DNA of 35,548 nucleotides, taken from IMG/VR virus record IMGVR_UViG_646564533_000012. One strand, 5' to 3'. Below the pieces are notes generated by a model, which made no database searches, had not been told where the DNA came from, and was given only the letters and a program-made list of their open reading frames with translations. The DNA comes from a virus (Duplodnaviria > Heunggongvirae > Uroviricota > Caudoviricetes). Below, in pieces: positions 5,234 to 12,081 of this stretch (position 1 is the first letter of the stretch; each line of letters opens with the position of its first letter). A program made the position numbers and the translations under genes.

Positions 5234-5623
5234 ATGATTGACGCTCATGACTTCACAAGATGGGTGCGCACACAGGACACCCGTCTGGCTCCCGTTCTTC
5301 AGGGATTATTTGATCTCTACATCCGTGGTCGTGACAACAGAGCACACACCACAAAACCGGAAAATGCAGACACCCTTTATTTCACAGTAGACGACTGCTA
5401 CCGCGTGGACTTCACACCACACGGGCTGGCGTTGCATTGCCTGACACCACACGGAGAATCACTGCTGGCGTATTACGACTCCCCGGCCTCCGTATTTGCG
5501 GCAATGCTGGCGCATCGCACTGCTGGCGGGTGTGCCTCGCTGAGTGAATACACCGCTGAATTTAACCGCCTTTCTGCCCTCTTCTCGCAGGAGTGGCAGC
5601 GCGTGACGGGATACCAGCCATGA
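5234..5623 (+). CDS. hypothetical protein coupled to A
   Basis: 129-aa ORF whose stop overlaps the A start (ATGA). Confidence 0.55.
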   Translation: MIDAHDFTRWVRTQDTRLAPVLQGLFDLYIRGRDNRAHTTKPENADTLYFTVDDCYRVDFTPHGLALHCLTPHGESLLAYYDSPASVFAAMLAHRTAGGCASLSEYTAEFNRLSALFSQEWQRVTGYQP

Positions 5624-8460
5624 GTGAGTTTGCATGGAGCTGGAATGAACCACGGCCAGCCATTGATCCGGCCAGATTTACGGAGCACAGGCAGGAAACT
5701 GAAACCGACCTACAACGCGCCATCCGTTACTACCTTGAGGCAGACAAAAAGGCTCTGGAAGAACAGGAAGCGAAGGAGGAAGCCTTTTTCGCACAATCCA
5801 CCGTGGGTAAAAAACTCATGGCATCCCTTGAGGAAGCCGGACAGCGTGAAAAGCTGGCACAAAGCATCATCAGCAAGCGTCAGGCAACAGAACAAGACCC
5901 GGTGGCCCGTGCTTTTGCCACACTGAAGGTGCTTCCCGTTTATCTGCGTGAACCTCTGAGCCGCCACCTCTCTTTCCTGCGCAAAAAACAGGAAGCCGAT
6001 CGCCAGAAAGGCAAAAAGAGCTGGCAGGCTGAACGCTACGCGCGCGGAACCCTGCGCAAAATATTCGAACGCCTGGACCGCACCGATCACCGCTGGCTGA
6101 CACCGGGTTATCGCTCCCTTGCCGGACGCGAACGCCTGGACGATTTGCTTTACCTGCCGCAGCTCAACAAACACCAGATACAGACGCTGGCCACCATGAC
6201 GGCGGCGATGTTCAGCAGCACCTTCGAAAAACTCTGCGATGGCTTTGGTGCGACTGATGGCGAACTGACCATGGATGTAACGCTGAAGGCGTATCAGATG
6301 CTGGCCCGCATGGCGTTACACCTGCACGCCATGCCTCCACATTATGACGCACTGACAACAGACAAAGACCGGAGGAACGAACCGGACACGGAGCTGCTGC
6401 CGGGCGCAACCCTTCGCCTGACCTGTGCGGAATGGTGGAAACGCAAACTGTGGCTGTTACGTTGCGAGTGGAGAGAAGAACAACTCCGCGCCGCCTGTCT
6501 GGTTTCCAGAAAAACATCACCCTATCTGAGCCAGGACGCGTTAAGCGAGTTTCGCGCACAGCGCGAGAAAACACGCGATTTCCTGAAAAGTTTCATGCTG
6601 GAAAACGAAGACGGGTTCACGATTGATCTCGAGACAGTGTATTACGCGGGAGTAAGTAACCCGGTTCACCGTAAGGCAGAAATGATGGCCACCATGAAGG
6701 GGCTGGAACTTCTGGCCGAAGCCCGTGGCGACAAAGCGGTGTTTCTGACTGTCACCTGCCCGTCAAAATACCACGCCACAACAGAGAACGGTCATCCGAA
6801 TCCCAAATGGAACGGGGCCACCATGCGCGACTCCAGCGATTACCTGGTTAACACGTTTTTTGCGGCGGTCCGCAAGAAACTGAACCGCGACGGCCTGCGC
6901 TGGTATGGCATCCGCACAGTGGAGCCTCACCATGACGGCACCGTGCACTGGCATATGATGGTCTTTGCTCATCCGGAAGAAATCGACACCATTGTGTCCC
7001 ACACCCGCGATATTGCCATTCAGGAAGACCGCCACGAGCTGGGCAATGATATTACTCCGCGCTTTAAGGTGGAGTATGTCGACGGCTCAAAAGGCACGCC
7101 AACCAGCTACATCGCCACCTACATCGGAAAGAACCTGGACAGCCGCGCCGTGGATGGCATCGACCCGAAAACGGGCAAGCCACGCGTTGACCACGAAACC
7201 GGAAAATCAATGGCCGAGAGCGTGGAACGCGCCATCGGCTGGGCACGCCTTCACCGGGTCCGCCAGTTCCAGTTCTTTGGCATCCCCTCCCGTCAGGTAT
7301 GGCGTGAACTCCGCCGCCTTGCCAGCCAGATGGCACGCAACCCGGAAGGCCCACAACGGCTGAAGGATGATGCAATGGATGCGGTACTCGCTGCCGCTGA
7401 TGCCGGGTGTTTTGCCACCTACATTGAGAAACAGGGCGGCGTACTTGTTCCACGCAAAGACTACCTGATTCGCACCGCCTACGACCTCGCAGATGAGCTG
7501 AACGATTACGGCGAACAGAGCGTACAGATTTACGGGATCTGGTCACCACTCATCGGGGAATCCTCCCGTGTGTGCACGCACCCGGATAACTGGAAGCTGG
7601 TAAGACGTAAACCGGAAGCGGAAGACAGCACCCGCGAAAATGGTTTTGACCTTCAGGGCGGCCCTGCCGCCCCTTGGACTCGTGGCAATAACTGTCCCCG
7701 TGTACAGGAAACGGACAACAACGGGACAGAACAGCCGGAAGAACGGCCAGCACCGTGGCCGCAGCTCCCTGACGGCGTTGATGTGGATGAATGGATGCGC
7801 TCACTGAAACGGCACGAACGCCGGGCGCTGATGCGTTCGCTTCGTGACAAACAGGCAAAAAACAGCAGTGATGAAATGCAGAGCTGGACACAGAGCCGCA
7901 AACAGCAGCGGCCTTTGCCTGATAACCACGAATTACTCGCTAAAGAATGGCGGGAGTCTGCTGAATCTCTCGGCCTGCATATCGGTGAACAACAGATGCA
8001 GCACCTGTTACGGGGCGGCAGTCTGTACGTTGACGGCAGCATCATTGCACCGCAGGGATTTGAAATTGTACGCAAACCGGATACCCGCCCGGACAGCCGA
8101 ATCACGCAGCTCTGGCAGCGCCTGAGCCGTAATCATGGCGTAAGCAGCACGGAGATCCGCCATAACCCGGTCGCCAGCTATCTGACACAGCTGGAGGCAT
8201 CAGACCCTGAAGCCGCCGCACGCCTGGCATCCACACTTCAGCAGGACCAGAACACCATGAAAACACCCGTTACCGTGCTTTCTGACATGCTGCGCGCCAT
8301 CCGCGACGCAGAGCACGCACAGAGAATCAGTGAAACCACTGAACGCGCCCGCCGCAAAGCAGACCTGCTGCGGGGTGGCCTGACCAGTGGAAACAAAAAA
8401 CAGACAGAAACGGGACTCACGAATCCCGCAAATGAGCAAAAAACGCGCAGCGATATATGA
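5620..8460 (+). CDS. A: replication initiation endonuclease A (rolling-circle, HUH superfamily)
   Basis: Track ORF trimmed to MSEFAWSW; HUH-type motif HWHMMVF and paired catalytic tyrosines in TPTSYIATYIGK; about 946 aa with a long low-complexity C-terminal extension. Confidence 0.93.
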   Translation: MSEFAWSWNEPRPAIDPARFTEHRQETETDLQRAIRYYLEADKKALEEQEAKEEAFFAQSTVGKKLMASLEEAGQREKLAQSIISKRQATEQDPVARAFATLKVLPVYLREPLSRHLSFLRKKQEADRQKGKKSWQAERYARGTLRKIFERLDRTDHRWLTPGYRSLAGRERLDDLLYLPQLNKHQIQTLATMTAAMFSSTFEKLCDGFGATDGELTMDVTLKAYQMLARMALHLHAMPPHYDALTTDKDRRNEPDTELLPGATLRLTCAEWWKRKLWLLRCEWREEQLRAACLVSRKTSPYLSQDALSEFRAQREKTRDFLKSFMLENEDGFTIDLETVYYAGVSNPVHRKAEMMATMKGLELLAEARGDKAVFLTVTCPSKYHATTENGHPNPKWNGATMRDSSDYLVNTFFAAVRKKLNRDGLRWYGIRTVEPHHDGTVHWHMMVFAHPEEIDTIVSHTRDIAIQEDRHELGNDITPRFKVEYVDGSKGTPTSYIATYIGKNLDSRAVDGIDPKTGKPRVDHETGKSMAESVERAIGWARLHRVRQFQFFGIPSRQVWRELRRLASQMARNPEGPQRLKDDAMDAVLAAADAGCFATYIEKQGGVLVPRKDYLIRTAYDLADELNDYGEQSVQIYGIWSPLIGESSRVCTHPDNWKLVRRKPEAEDSTRENGFDLQGGPAAPWTRGNNCPRVQETDNNGTEQPEERPAPWPQLPDGVDVDEWMRSLKRHERRALMRSLRDKQAKNSSDEMQSWTQSRKQQRPLPDNHELLAKEWRESAESLGLHIGEQQMQHLLRGGSLYVDGSIIAPQGFEIVRKPDTRPDSRITQLWQRLSRNHGVSSTEIRHNPVASYLTQLEASDPEAAARLASTLQQDQNTMKTPVTVLSDMLRAIRDAEHAQRISETTERARRKADLLRGGLTSGNKKQTETGLTNPANEQKTRSDI

Positions 8461-8501
8461 AGCGCGCACAAAACAGGCAAAAACGGGATTTCAGAATCCC
8501 G
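8411..8501. repeat. two near-identical 18-bp palindromes (CGGGAYTC-N2-GAATCCCG), about 73 bp apart, at the A/parM junction
   Basis: Approx 8411..8428 and 8484..8501, each within a longer conserved direct repeat; candidate ParR-binding centromere/operator, or minus-strand terminators. Confidence 0.45.
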
Positions 8502-8536
8502 TAAACGATTAATTAATCAACATAAGGAAAAGCGAC

Positions 8537-9496
8537 ATGAAAATTTGTATCGACGACGGCTCCACCAACATCAAGCTGGCATGGACTGAGAACGGCGAAC
8601 GCCGCAACGCCATCAGCCCGAACAGCTTCAAGTCGGAATGGTCTGCGCCGTTCGGTGGCACGCAGCCCGCGAACTACATGCTTGATGGCGTGCGCTATGG
8701 TTTTGATCCGGTCAGCGATCGCTTTGTCCAGACGACCGACACGCAATACCAATACAGCGATGTGAATGTCATTGCCATTCATCACGCGCTGGTCAAATCA
8801 GGCATCACACCACAGGAGGTGGATGTGGTTGTCACCCTGCCACTGAGCGAGTATTTCGACACAAACGCACAGCCGGACATGGCCAACATCAACCGCAAAA
8901 AAGCGAACGTTATGCGCCCGGTGGAGTACCAGAACGGCGAAGCATTCACTATCCGTAACGTGCGGGTTATGCCTGAATCCATTCCGGCTGGCTTTAAGGC
9001 ACTGGCTGACATGAGTCCGTTTGAATCCCTGCTGATTGTGGATTTGGGCGGAACCACGCTGGATGTGGCAAAGGTTCAGGGGCAACTGGCAGGTATCAGC
9101 CAGGTGTTTTGCGATCCACACGTAGGCGTTTCTCTGATGGCCGATGCCGTACTGTCGGTGATGGCCACTAACGGTATGCGCACCAGTCACCACATCGCCA
9201 ATACCATTATCGAACATCGCCATGATGAAGCCTGGCTGCGCCAGCACATCCACAATGACGCGCATTACGACAGCCTGATGGCGGTTATTCGTGAAAAGGA
9301 AGAAACACTGAAACAACGAGTGATCCGCGCGCTGGCGGGTTTTTCGGGTTACGGGCGGGTGATGGTTGTCGGTGGCGGGGCGGAGATTGTGGCACCCGCT
9401 ATCCGCGAAGCCTGCGGAGTTAATGCGACTTTCATCGCGGACGGGGTGCCACAGTTTGCTCTGGTTAATGGGCTGTACGCAATGGACAAGGAGTAA
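8537..9496 (+). CDS. parM: ParM/StbA-like actin-type segregation ATPase
   Basis: N-terminus MKICIDDGSTNIKLAW matches the plasmid R1 ParM phosphate-1 motif; similarity continues (SPNSF, YSDVNV, HHAL, LIVDLGGTT); 319 aa. Confidence 0.88.
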   Translation: MKICIDDGSTNIKLAWTENGERRNAISPNSFKSEWSAPFGGTQPANYMLDGVRYGFDPVSDRFVQTTDTQYQYSDVNVIAIHHALVKSGITPQEVDVVVTLPLSEYFDTNAQPDMANINRKKANVMRPVEYQNGEAFTIRNVRVMPESIPAGFKALADMSPFESLLIVDLGGTTLDVAKVQGQLAGISQVFCDPHVGVSLMADAVLSVMATNGMRTSHHIANTIIEHRHDEAWLRQHIHNDAHYDSLMAVIREKEETLKQRVIRALAGFSGYGRVMVVGGGAEIVAPAIREACGVNATFIADGVPQFALVNGLYAMDKE

Positions 9497-9500
9497 ACCA

Positions 9501-9812
9501 ATGACGACACCAACCAGACGGATAAGTTTCTATCTGAAGCCCGCCGCCGTCAAGAACGAAGGCGAAGCATGCACCTGGCTGGACAGCCTTACACCAGAAG
9601 CCCGCAAAAGCGGCCAACGTGTGGCTTTTCTGGCCGGGCTGGCACTTCTGAAAATGAATCCGGCAGAGGCTTACCGACTGGCTGCATGGGCTGACGATGA
9701 GGCGTTATCAGTGACACAAACCAGGACAGAACGCCCCGCGTCACAGCCAGTACCAACCTCACAGATAACCAGTCGGATGGCCGGAAATATCAGGGCGTTA
9801 TTTCCCGAATAA
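9501..9812 (+). CDS. parR: ParR/StbB-like centromere-binding adaptor
   Basis: Track ORF trimmed to the Met behind AAGGAG (MTTPTRRISFYLKP...); ISFYLKP, WLDSL, AFLAGLAL and NIRALFPE align with R1 ParR; immediately downstream of parM. Confidence 0.78.
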   Translation: MTTPTRRISFYLKPAAVKNEGEACTWLDSLTPEARKSGQRVAFLAGLALLKMNPAEAYRLAAWADDEALSVTQTRTERPASQPVPTSQITSRMAGNIRALFPE

Positions 9813-9819
9813 CACAACA

Positions 9820-9845
9820 TCAGGGCGCATCCGCCCTGATGACTT
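9820..9845. promoter_or_regulatory. perfect 10-bp-arm inverted repeat (CATCAGGGCG-N4-CGCCCTGATG)
   Basis: Lies between parR and the next gene; operator or terminator hairpin; coordinates approx. Confidence 0.35.
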
Positions 9846-9875
9846 TAATCCGGGAACATAAACAAGGGGGACACA

Positions 9876-10208
9876 ATGCAACACATTGACAGAGAAAAAG
9901 CGCAGCGACTGATTGAGCGGATGGAAGCGCTGGCGAAAGAAGAAAATGTCAACATCCAAAAAATAGCTGAATGTGGCCAGATAGTTCTTCGTCGTGAAAA
10001 AGACCTCAAACAACTGATGTCTGGCGAAACCAGCAAAACATGGACTTCAGGCGAGGAGACGATTTATTGCAGCTTCTGCAATAAATCTCAGTACGAAGTC
10101 ACAAAGGTGATTGCCGGACCGTCTGTTTGCATCTGCAATGAGTGCGTGGATTTGTCCAATGAAATTATCAGGAGAGAAGTGACAGACAAAAAGGGAAAAA
10201 ACGCATGA
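9876..10208 (+). CDS. small protein with ClpX-type C4 zinc-finger (ZBD)-like C-terminal domain
   Basis: [39 protein letters not shown] nearly matches the ClpX N-terminal zinc-binding domain as I recall it; charged, helical N-terminal half. Confidence 0.78.
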
Positions 10209-10543
10209 ACAGAAAACAAAAACAAGAGTTGAAATACTTTTTACGTAAAGAAATTGCCAGGCTTGAAGATGCAGAATCACAATCATCAGAAATTCCGTTC
10301 GGAATGGATATCAACGACGCCCGTATGCTCCAGGCATACCGCATAGCTCAGGCTGCACTACAGGCAAAACCGTCAGATGGACTGGTTAGAGCAGTACGAT
10401 TCTATGAACTGGTAAAGCGTGAGAATCCGCCAGCCGAAACCGGAGCATGGAAAGACGCTGTTGACTGGGTACTCAAAGAGGCTTGTCAGGTTGTAAACAC
10501 TGGCATCAAAGGAGACCTAGCCCAGCCTGCATCAAAGCTATAG
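10205..10543 (+). CDS. hypothetical protein coupled to the ZBD gene
   Basis: 112-aa ORF with ATGA overlap to the upstream gene. Confidence 0.5.
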
Positions 10544-10552
10544 AAATGAGCC

Positions 10553-10580
10553 AAAACGCCCTCTTCCAGGGCGTTTATTT
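10553..10580 (+). terminator. rho-independent terminator of the accessory operon
   Basis: AAACGCCCT-CTTCC-AGGGCGTTT hairpin followed by a T-rich run. Confidence 0.5.
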
Positions 10581-10583
10581 CAA

Positions 10584-11034
10584 TGCACAATAGTGCACAA
10601 ATTTGCACAATTTTTTTGAACGACTTTTTGCCCTTCCGGCCCGCGTGGCGGCTGGATCCGTCAAGGATCCGTGCGTGCACAAAAAAACGCGCTTTTTCTG
10701 CGCGCAGGTGACGGGGGAACAGCCCGCGTTTCAGGGGGTAAATAGCATCCCCTGAACGATGTCGCAGCAACACAACAGAATGGCTGTATTTCTCACGCTG
10801 AGCGTGAAAAAAACGTGAGGGCTTTTGATTTGATGGGGTGAAAGGTAAGGCCGTCAAAATCGCACTGAGGCGGCGAGAACATGCAGTTAACGCGGTGGGA
10901 TTGCGTAAGAGTCTGACCGTCGATGATGGCAATAAGCAGGAAAGCGTCGTGAAATTATCTGACTGATACAGGAGCTGGAGAGTCGGGGCATAAATTTTTT
11001 ATGCCCCGGCGAAGCAGCAGACAAGCGAAGCGCG
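10584..11034. other. putative cos / packaging-recognition region
   Basis: About 450-bp non-coding gap in the position of P2 cos, upstream of Q; TGCACAA x3 at 10-bp phasing (10584, 10594, 10604) plus a fourth copy near 10676; GC-rich GCGTGGCGG and GAGGCGGCG segments resemble 186/P2 cohesive ends; exact cos not assignable. Confidence 0.35.
10984..11009. terminator. strong hairpin just downstream of Q
   Basis: GGGGCATAAA-TTT-TTTATGCCCC, about 25 bp past the Q stop; coordinates approx. Confidence 0.3.
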
Positions 11035-12081
11035 TCAGGATGTGGGCTGGGTGTCCAGCAGTGCATAAGGGTTAAAGCGGATCACCTCTTCGCCAAGCCA
11101 GTCATTGATGTGCTTCATGGCCTCCATGACGGGCATCAGCTCGTTAATTGCGTAAACCCGCGCGGCCTTCTCCACATCACCAAACGCACTTTTTTCACCC
11201 GGCATCGCCCCCATCAGTTGCGGCGGGACACGGTGCGCAGCCAGCACATCATCACGGGATGCCGCCTTAACATTCATGAACTCATCCTTTGCGGTGATCT
11301 GCTGGAACGGCAAAATTTGCACCCCCTCTTTGCCCCCGTTGGGCGCATGAATGAGCACGTTTTTAAACGCACCACCACCACGTGCACCCTGTAACGTTTC
11401 TTTCAGGGAGTCCATGCTTTCGCGGTTTACCTGCGCTGCACCGATGTAGATGATGCACCCGGCGTGGGATCCGTTGTCGTAATACAGTTTTCTGAACATG
11501 TCCGCCGAATGAGACAGGCTGGCCGAGAGTAATGCGCCGAGATATTCCGGCATGCCGTAAATTTCCTGGTTAATGTCCGGATTCATCAGGTGGCACACTT
11601 TGCCAGGGCGAAACTGGAACGCGTCCTTGCCATCCTGCACATACCACCATGATTCAAGATCGCTTCCGCGTCGCATGTATTTCGCCAGTGCGTGCCGTAA
11701 TTTAAGCGGTTCGCAGAGCATATTGCTTCGAAGCTCAAGGAATGCGTTACCGAACACAAACCAGTCCAGCGCCAGCGCCGAGAAATCCTGCCGGGAAAGC
11801 AGCGGGTGCGGAATATAGCAACCGAGCAATACATTCCGCTTAAAGTAAAGCGCAGACTGATGCCAGGACGTTTGCCGGGCAGCTCTTGCCAGACCGTACC
11901 AGTCCACCGGGGTTTCATACCACCGCCCGTTATCAGCACAGTACATATTGTCCAGCAGGTCATGCCCGGTCAGGCGATAAGGACCATCAAATGTGAATGC
12001 ACTGAGCGATGATTCTTTCCTGAGCGCATCAGCGAGATCAATGCGTGAACTCATGCGCACTTTTTTATTTTTTCTGCTCAT
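11035..12081 (-). CDS. Q: portal protein Q
   Basis: 348 aa, position and size match P2 gpQ; stop/start overlap with P. Confidence 0.9.
   Translation of the reverse strand: MSRKNKKVRMSSRIDLADALRKESSLSAFTFDGPYRLTGHDLLDNMYCADNGRWYETPVDWYGLARAARQTSWHQSALYFKRNVLLGCYIPHPLLSRQDFSALALDWFVFGNAFLELRSNMLCEPLKLRHALAKYMRRGSDLESWWYVQDGKDAFQFRPGKVCHLMNPDINQEIYGMPEYLGALLSASLSHSADMFRKLYYDNGSHAGCIIYIGAAQVNRESMDSLKETLQGARGGGAFKNVLIHAPNGGKEGVQILPFQQITAKDEFMNVKAASRDDVLAAHRVPPQLMGAMPGEKSAFGDVEKAARVYAINELMPVMEAMKHINDWLGEEVIRFNPYALLDTQPTS

Follow-up and report, generated by a model that had tools for sequence, protein, structure and literature searches.

The DNA analyzed here, a stretch of 35,548 nucleotides (IMG/VR record IMGVR_UViG_646564533_000012; the window in what follows), is by sequence similarity a P2-like (P88-like) E. 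coli prophage. Escherichia phage P88 (Peduoviridae, Xuanwuvirus) matches positions 8400-10900 with 98.6% identity, and from 9820 to 10580 the sequence agrees at 100% with the chromosome of E. coli O55:H7 CB9615. Downstream of parM and parR reside two small open reading frames (ORFs), ORF1 and ORF2. A preliminary description of the region had taken ORF1 for a stand-alone mimic of the ClpX zinc finger, and the identification of a ClpX-type zinc-binding domain (ZBD) has held. ORF1 and its parts are the following:

9876-10208, plus strand: ORF1, 110 amino acids (aa), ATG start, GGGGGA upstream
9876-10022, plus strand: N-domain of ORF1, residues 1-49, two helices predicted by AlphaFold2 (AF2) at residues 6-23 and 27-48
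10023-10058, plus strand: linker of ORF1, residues 50-61, predicted disordered, of variable length
10059-10187, plus strand: ZBD of ORF1, residues 62-104, with Zn ligands C65, C68, C87 and C90

The ClpX-type domain of ORF1

Residues 64-99 of ORF1 match the Pfam family PF06689 (zf-C4_ClpX) with E=7.1e-16 and a score of 58.3 bits, the gathering cut-off being 27, and cover positions 2-38 of the 39-position profile. E. coli ClpX ZBD entries (1ovx, 2ds5-8) are the best matches of ORF1 in a phmmer search of the PDB (E ~1e-16). The ligand spacing C65-x2-C68-x18-C87-x2-C90 is that of ClpX, and the four cysteines are invariant in the family. Over 39 residues the domain is 74% identical to the ZBD of E. 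coli ClpX, the corresponding figure for the P88 allele being 79%. The ZBD part of the AF2 model has a predicted local distance difference test (pLDDT) score of 82-87, and is superimposed by Foldseek on 2ds5, 2ds6 and 2ds8 with a root-mean-square deviation (rmsd) of 0.7-1.0 A over 40-42 residues and a template modelling (TM) score of 0.88-0.91. The agreement goes far beyond chance, and the model predicts for ORF1 the fold of the ClpX ZBD, made up by beta-hairpins and a C-terminal helix. A mismatch with this fold, named in the preliminary description as what would refute the reading, is not seen in the model. Linker residues 50-59 score below 50, and differ in both length and sequence across the family alignment. 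No AAA+ module is found in ORF1, the TIGR00382 profile scoring 45.8 against a cut-off of 370.75 and matching at profile positions 6-52 only; being devoid of the motor, the protein could dock ligands, not unfold them.

Residues F67 and I97 of ORF1 correspond to F16 and I46 of ClpX, which form the hydrophobic pocket bound by lambdaO, trigger factor (TF), SspB and RssB (PMC7804408). Both are kept across the P88-type family, and in the homologue of phage-plasmid D6 Val takes the place of I46. Two changes in the ZBD set the window allele apart from that of P88, Y85C (10128-10130) and C94S (10155-10157). The former falls at a conserved aromatic position (Tyr34 in ClpX), where Cys recurs independently in two further homologues (L093 and L095); the latter (Cys43 in ClpX) was found only in the window/CB9615 allele among the sequences examined. 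A ClpX degron in the C-terminal tail of ORF1 was considered and dropped, as tails appear by eye to vary among family members.

Sequence comparisons assign ORF1 to a conserved family of two-domain proteins, encoded by temperate phages and phage-plasmids of Enterobacterales. Of 5426 complete E. coli genomes, 112 (~2%) carry P88-type ORF1, UTI89 and NU14 among them, and O55:H7 CB9615 is also a carrier; about 100 further E. coli genomes host a 47-50% identical version on 90-110 kb plasmids. A scan of IMG/VR recovered 80 loci, some of them in other P2-like lineages in which gpA is only 30-58% identical. Homologues in these lineages are 28-70% identical to ORF1 and occupy the same slot between gpA and the portal gene, mostly without parMR. 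In the phage-plasmids D6 and PhiR41_1 the homologue lies inside tight arrays of ead/Ea22-like, Eae and EaA genes. A role as accessory of parMR was rejected, since parMR does not adjoin the homologues of phage-plasmids and of other P2-like lineages. D6-type homologues (L059-L085) are followed in 25 of 27 loci by a ~176-aa protein with a coiled-coil C-terminal half (e.g. L008, 4300-4830), and most are preceded by an Ea22-like gene, a neighbourhood distinct from, and more constant than, that of P88-type genes.

The family corresponds to PHROG 6797 and to the RefSeq name 'ClpX C4-type zinc finger protein'. ORF1 is 98% identical to P88 gp19 (YP_009113062) and 47% identical to D6 orf93 (YP_009914770). 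A widespread RefSeq/GenBank name of the homologues, these two accessions included, is 'carboxylate--amine ligase', which is supported by no search and looks like a propagated misannotation. ORF1 matches no defence model in PADLOC-DB v2.

All members share the N-domain motif …RLE…EN(I/L)(T/S)..EL(V/A).C.RI(V/I).RR…, followed by a variable linker and by the ZBD. A single-sequence phmmer search with the N-domain over 1.84e9 representative proteins returned 12 matches, nearly all of which are fragments or belong to this family. A profile search retrieved 80 clusters (Escherichia, Salmonella, Serratia, Yersinia), each full-length one carrying PF06689; against the PDB the same profile gave nothing under E=0.15. 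By these searches the N-domain is private to the family, and occurs only fused to a ClpX-like ZBD. A kinship with the N-termini of ORF2-family proteins, suggested by similar 'ITREQAKKIIE' starts, was rejected, as neither the phmmer nor the profile search recovered such a protein.

The resemblance to ClpX is old. ZBD codons of the family differ from E. coli clpX with a synonymous difference (pS) of 0.85-1.0, that is, at saturation, while amino-acid identity is 69-80%; P88-type and D6-type ZBDs compared with each other give a nonsynonymous to synonymous ratio (dN/dS) of 0.17-0.24. Host clpX was never matched by ORF1 in distant-mode blastn searches of the 5426 E. coli genomes. Recent capture from host clpX is ruled out by the pS values and by the absence of blastn matches, and saturated synonymous sites next to 69-80% amino-acid identity denote long-term purifying selection to stay ClpX-like. 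ZBD cores are 72-86% identical to ClpX in five phage lineages (56% in an outlier, L093), and the N-domains of those five lineages are only 13-50% identical to that of the window. The ZBD of every phage lineage is nearer to ClpX than to the ZBDs of other phage lineages. This star-like pattern is suggestive of mimicry, but independent divergence from one ClpX-like ancestor yields it as well.

ORF2 and the cargo slot

The reading frames of ORF1 and ORF2 overlap, as had been noted beforehand, the stop codon of the first and the start codon of the second sharing ATGA. ORF2 is made up by the following parts:

10205-10543, plus strand: ORF2, 112 aa, start overlapping the ORF1 stop by ATGA
10205-10375, plus strand: N-module of ORF2, residues 1-57, confined to the place after ORF1 in P88-type phages, with various C-termini
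10376-10516, plus strand: C-terminal module of ORF2, residues 58-104, near-invariant and widespread
10517-10543, plus strand: tail LAQPASKL and stop codon, relic of an 86-aa downstream gene

Recombination breakpoints fall at 10373/10376 and 10515/10517. At one locus (L004) the N-module is joined to an unrelated C-terminus. The C-terminal module, 47 residues long with 29 invariant columns, resides in 591 protein clusters, PF13935 (ead/Ea22-like) proteins included. Its DNA is 88-94% identical in lambdoid phages (mEp460), Uetakevirus, phage-plasmids and 50-150 kb plasmids, in genes which differ in the rest of their sequence, and it has the look of a module at which 'ea-region' genes are joined by recombination. 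A 761-nt ORF1-ORF2 query matches 710 of the 5426 E. coli genomes, mostly over this module only. At another locus (L005, 3386-4099), where the match to the cassette query is split in two by an insertion, ORF2 is 104 aa long and ends with ...GIKGE, and a separate 86-aa gene ends with ...LAQPASKL. The 86-aa gene is intact in strain ECL27829, and a deletion of ~375 bp fused its last 9 codons onto the ORF2 of the window, which by this comparison is a deletion fusion.

No Pfam match to ORF2 was found at E<=1, PF13935 included, and no NCBIfam match; the comparison with PADLOC-DB v2 gave a weak match to PDC-M28C (E=0.013). The AF2 model, of low confidence (pLDDT 55), is all-helical with four helices. 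Sequence searches of the PDB gave nothing meaningful, and no similarity to the solved C-terminal domain of lambda Ea22. ORF2 is a minimal member of a mosaic 'ea-region' family. The preliminary description had left the 112-aa product as an unknown; this does not apply to its C-terminal 47 residues, a module common to hundreds of mosaic prophage proteins.

The gene following ORF1 was monitored in 38 P88-type IMG/VR loci. ORF2 was found in 20, and the ORF2 N-module with another C-terminus in 4; that other C-terminus without the N-module is present in 4 more, an unrelated 174-aa protein in 6, and doc/phd on the opposite strand in the last 4. The N-module thus lies behind ORF1 in 24 loci out of 38, its place being taken by unrelated genes in 14. 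ORF2 is missing from 9 loci of other P2-like lineages and from 27 phage-plasmid loci (0/36). ORF1 homologues have at least 6 different downstream neighbours, or none, some being the last gene before the portal gene, and one prophage has kept an ORF2-like gene and lost ORF1 by deletion. Start/stop overlaps of 4 nt are usual in the 'ea'-type arrays which house both families, so that the ATGA overlap says little about partnership. The notion that the two genes make up one accessory module is not supported by these counts, nor by the occurrence of an ORF2-like gene without ORF1. ORF1 is independent of ORF2, which the comparison of loci depicts as an interchangeable mosaic neighbour, not as an obligate partner.

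The surroundings of the two genes include the following features:

5593-8460: gpA-type replication endonuclease
8537-9496, plus strand: parM (Pfam StbA_N/ParM_N)
9501-9812, plus strand: parR/StbB (Pfam Plasmid_stab_B)
9816-10583, plus strand: variable cargo slot, consisting of the ORF1-ORF2 cassette and two flanking hairpins, set by homology breakpoints
9818-9841: perfect 10-bp, GC-rich hairpin between parR and ORF1, -18.4 kcal/mol, z=-7.6 (RNA fold)
10554-10576, plus strand: hairpin followed by UUAUUU, after ORF2, -14.3 kcal/mol, z=-3.5 (RNA fold)
11035-12081, minus strand: portal gene Q, with the terminase gene P beyond it, likewise on the minus strand

The local order is gpA, parM, parR, ORF1, ORF2, ~490 nt of non-coding DNA, and then Q and P. 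ORF1 lies downstream of parMR and within the gpA-gpQ slot, in keeping with its earlier description as a hotspot gene. The slot is the variable hotspot of P2-like phages defined by Rousset et al. (PMC9122126), and the cassette belongs to its cargo both by location, between gpA and portal Q, and by presence/absence polymorphism among close relatives. Arrangements described as 'StbA + Plasmid_stab_B + zf-C4_ClpX + hypothetical (x3)' are included in Table S5 of that study, and 'ClpX' is absent from its table of tested systems (PMC9122126). Homology with the cassette-less P88-like phages 520873 and phiSM stops at 9812-9815 and restarts at 10584, the right boundary of the cassette being 10583/10584.

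The hairpin at 9818-9841 directly follows parR and has a terminator-like score on the minus strand only, though no minus-strand gene ends there. Its U-tract on the plus strand is weak, so that parMR transcription may read through into ORF1. The hairpin at 10554-10576, which the consensus terminator scan did not call, is probably the terminator of the cassette. The non-coding DNA from the cassette to the portal gene (10584-11034) is ~95% conserved in all the P88-like phages compared. In view of the layout of P2 and 186, this interval presumably contains cos, and GCGTGGCGG, at ~10645, appears similar to the beginning of the cohesive end in 186.

Some rearrangements and neighbours were observed beside these. 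Proteins of 191 aa (P0032 and its relatives P0029-P0035), found on 143 contigs, consist of ParM residues 1-123 joined to ORF2 from residue 37, and denote a recurrent deletion of the 3' half of parM, parR, ORF1 and the 5' end of ORF2. In a distant P2-like lineage (L091, 2235-2945) a 236-aa protein with a DPPY motif, by eye a putative N6-adenine methyltransferase, is encoded ahead of the ORF1 homologue, as a further cargo of the hotspot. In four independent contexts the neighbours of ORF1 homologues are type II toxin-antitoxin modules. One is doc/phd and another a divergent form of it (58% and 28% identity); the third has a YafO-toxin gene preceded by a gene for 197 aa, and the fourth is a pair that reads as HicA/HicB-like from translations alone. 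These neighbours are located at 3559-4310 in L003, ~3506-4254 in L043-L045 and L048, 1849-2630 in L087, ~4094-5077 in L014-L016 and 3402-4039 in L091. The adjacency could be due to chance in a hotspot rich in such modules, or to a functional link; Phd is a known ClpXP substrate (PMC3920263).

Possible roles of ORF1

The role that we favour for ORF1, if tentatively and at somewhat less than even confidence, is that of a decoy acting in trans, which would block ZBD-dependent functions of ClpXP. The functional unit would be ORF1, displaying a ClpX-type ZBD free of the AAA+ motor. The protein would fold around one Zn and dimerise, as the isolated ClpX ZBD does, and would expose the hydrophobic pocket to adaptors (the SspB tail, RssB, UmuD) and to substrates dependent on the N-domain of ClpX (lambdaO, MuA, FtsZ). 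With expression from the prophage, or in the early phase of infection, it would be a competitor of ClpX for ZBD ligands, the expected result being a selective damping of ZBD-dependent ClpXP degradation and remodelling in which substrates recognized by the pore, such as those with ssrA tags, would be spared. The N-terminal helical hairpin may add a second function, e.g. stronger oligomerisation or the binding of particular clients, and ORF2 would not be required for activity.

The reasoning is that a phage ZBD which lacks the motor, and has kept Zn ligands and pocket, should compete for the ligands of the ClpX domain. LambdaO is not degraded by ClpX devoid of the ZBD (PMC7804408), and the N-domain of ClpX is needed for the recognition of SspB and RssB, and for the direct recognition of MuA and FtsZ, not for that of ssrA tags (PMC5415555). 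The purified ZBD dimerises, as indicated by rapid cross-linking, and in trans inhibits RssB-dependent degradation of sigmaS by ClpXP (PMC7226468); once immobilised, it binds XB-containing peptides at 35-82 nM (PMC12373786). Given the effect of the free domain on sigmaS degradation, titration of ClpX partners by ORF1 is biochemically plausible (PMC7226468).

Several points weigh against the decoy. Inhibition by the free ZBD in vitro took a 5-20 uM excess over 0.6 uM ClpXP (PMC7226468), and a decoy would therefore need high expression; ORF1 is preceded by a strong hairpin, and a promoter scan upstream of the gene found no sigma-70-like site. Conservation of the pocket was assessed at two named residues, F16 and I46, and the Tyr34Cys and Cys43Ser changes of the window allele might alter the ligand site. 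Zinc binding, dimerisation, competition for ligands and the physiological outcome are all steps that we infer. Finally, a plain decoy leaves unexplained the conserved N-domain, which is always attached to the ZBD, and it is this domain that keeps alive two other models, in which ORF1 acts on ClpX in a different way, or not on ClpX at all.

In the first of these ORF1 would join the ClpX hexamer, by ZBD-ZBD pairing or by docking of its N-domain, and either deliver to ClpXP a client bound by the N-domain, or reprogramme or poison the machine. A conserved N-domain found only together with the ZBD is what is expected of a bipartite tether with a client end and a ClpX end; ZBDs are dimerisation domains, rapidly cross-linked to dimers (PMC7226468), and tethering to the ZBD suffices for the degradation of a protein, as seen with CLIPPERs (PMC12373786). 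Closeness of each phage ZBD to host ClpX fits as well, but is equally given by divergence from one ClpX-like ancestor, and is no proof that an interface is mimicked. In its ZBD-pairing form the model calls for a putative heterodimerisation with pre-formed ClpX ZBD dimers, and in either form it has no candidate client, the N-domain having neither relatives elsewhere nor a match in the PDB. We regard it as unlikely, though worth keeping in view.

A role independent of ClpX is a shade less probable again. The ZBD would be in this case a Zn-stabilised scaffold for dimerisation or peptide binding, part of a phage regulator with targets unrelated to ClpXP, which might for instance tune the lysis-lysogeny choice or induction as 'ea/exo-xis' genes do. 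D6-type homologues do lie inside arrays of ead/Ea22-like, Eae and EaA genes, and the choice between lysogeny and lysis is influenced, through mechanisms as yet unknown, by lambda Ea22 and the genes around it (PMC10834534). A pure scaffold, however, would have no need for 72-86% identity to ClpX, pocket residues included, after saturation of synonymous sites; in the same time the N-domains diverged down to 13-50% identity.

An obligate pairing of ORF1 with ORF2, be it for toxin-antitoxin action, anti-phage defence or anti-defence, in line with the two-gene accessory module proposed at first, has very little to commend it: the ATGA overlap, the many defence systems housed by the P2 gpA-gpQ hotspot (PMC9122126), the N-module directly behind ORF1 in 24 of 38 P88-type loci and the Ea22-like or coiled-coil genes flanking D6-type genes speak for it, and against it stand the lack of ORF2 at 14/38 P88-type and 36/36 other-lineage loci, the persistence of an ORF2-like gene after deletion of ORF1, the swapping of C-termini and the origin of the window ORF2 by deletion fusion, the PADLOC results (none for ORF1, weak for ORF2), and the listing of the arrangement in Table S5 of Rousset et al., whose table of tested systems has no entry naming 'ClpX'.

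To return to the decoy, a wider and improbable proposal, less likely than either of the first two alternatives above, is that the whole family is dedicated to mimicking the docking domain of ClpX, and gives temperate phages a decoy of a host factor, either to exclude competitors or to set the half-life of antitoxins. ClpX must remodel the MuA transpososome. If the exclusion variant holds, N-domain-dependent functions of ClpX would be shut off and competitors in need of them excluded, e.g. Mu-type transposable phages, the recognition of MuA using the ClpX N-domain (PMC5415555); this would be defence by mimicry of a host dependency factor. If the antitoxin variant holds, it is ORF1 that would determine how long antitoxins labile to ClpXP, such as Phd, persist.

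ClpXP controls sigmaS, SOS mutagenesis proteins, cell-division proteins, some antitoxins, and lambda and Mu replication proteins. Should the decoy be real, ORF1 would be the first viral factor to target ClpXP via a copy of its adaptor-docking domain, and the few strategies of protease inhibition in phages would be joined by a 'domain-mimic' one. ORF1 would also provide a selective genetic tool, able to turn off adaptor-dependent ClpXP proteolysis and to leave ssrA quality control untouched. ORF1 resides in ~2% of complete E. coli genomes, and many phage-plasmids carry it too. Should it affect sigmaS or stress tolerance, clinical strains would therefore acquire the trait by lysogenic conversion. 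Control of sigmaS, the biology of Mu and lambda, and antitoxin stability are the fields to which the gene may be relevant.

Comparison with known systems

Phage inhibitors of host AAA+ proteases include lambda CIII, which acts on FtsH, T4 PinA and T7 Gp4.5, which act on Lon, and SPO1 Gp53, which acts on ClpC. These are small phage accessory proteins which interfere with a host ATP-dependent protease to the advantage of the phage, and in this they resemble the proposed ORF1 decoy. None of the four is known to target ClpXP by copying the docking domain of the protease, or to be related in sequence to ORF1. A literature search for stand-alone phage ZBD proteins, for the function of the ORF1 family and for phage inhibitors of ClpXP found no paper.

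Anti-adaptors IraD, IraM and IraP, which prevent RssB from delivering sigmaS, parallel what is proposed for ORF1, in that sequestration of an adaptor stabilises a ZBD-dependent client, sigmaS; the ZBD and IraD have been proposed to share the RssB site (PMC7226468). Unlike ORF1, they have unrelated folds, are encoded by the host and are specific for RssB, whereas ORF1 would affect all ZBD ligands. ORF2 in turn resembles the lambda Ea22 and ead/Ea22-like family (PF13935) in being modular and helix-rich, with swappable C-terminal domains, and some members of that family carry the exact C-module of ORF2; in contrast to PF13935 proteins, ORF2 is a minimal version without the central segment.

With the ZBD of E. 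coli ClpX itself (PDB 1OVX and 2DS5-2DS8; PF06689) ORF1 shares the C4 spacing, 74-79% core identity, a predicted fold within 1 A and the F16/I46 pair. The ORF1 domain differs from it in being phage-encoded, devoid of the motor, C-terminal behind a private helical hairpin and saturated at synonymous sites, and in the Tyr34Cys and Cys43Ser changes of the window allele. The recombinant isolated ZBD used as competitor in vitro is likewise motor-less, binds XB peptides and RssB, and blocks sigmaS degradation (PMC7226468, PMC12373786). It is a laboratory fragment, whereas ORF1, for which such an activity is proposed, occurs in nature, is under selection and encodes a further domain. P88 gp19, D6 orf93, PHROG 6797 and the RefSeq 'ClpX C4-type zinc finger protein' are all the same family, and are uncharacterised; the gene was already annotated, and its arrangement catalogued, without a function. 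What the sequence comparisons newly bring out is a two-domain family with a private N-domain, in which synonymous sites are saturated and purifying selection has kept the ZBD ClpX-like.

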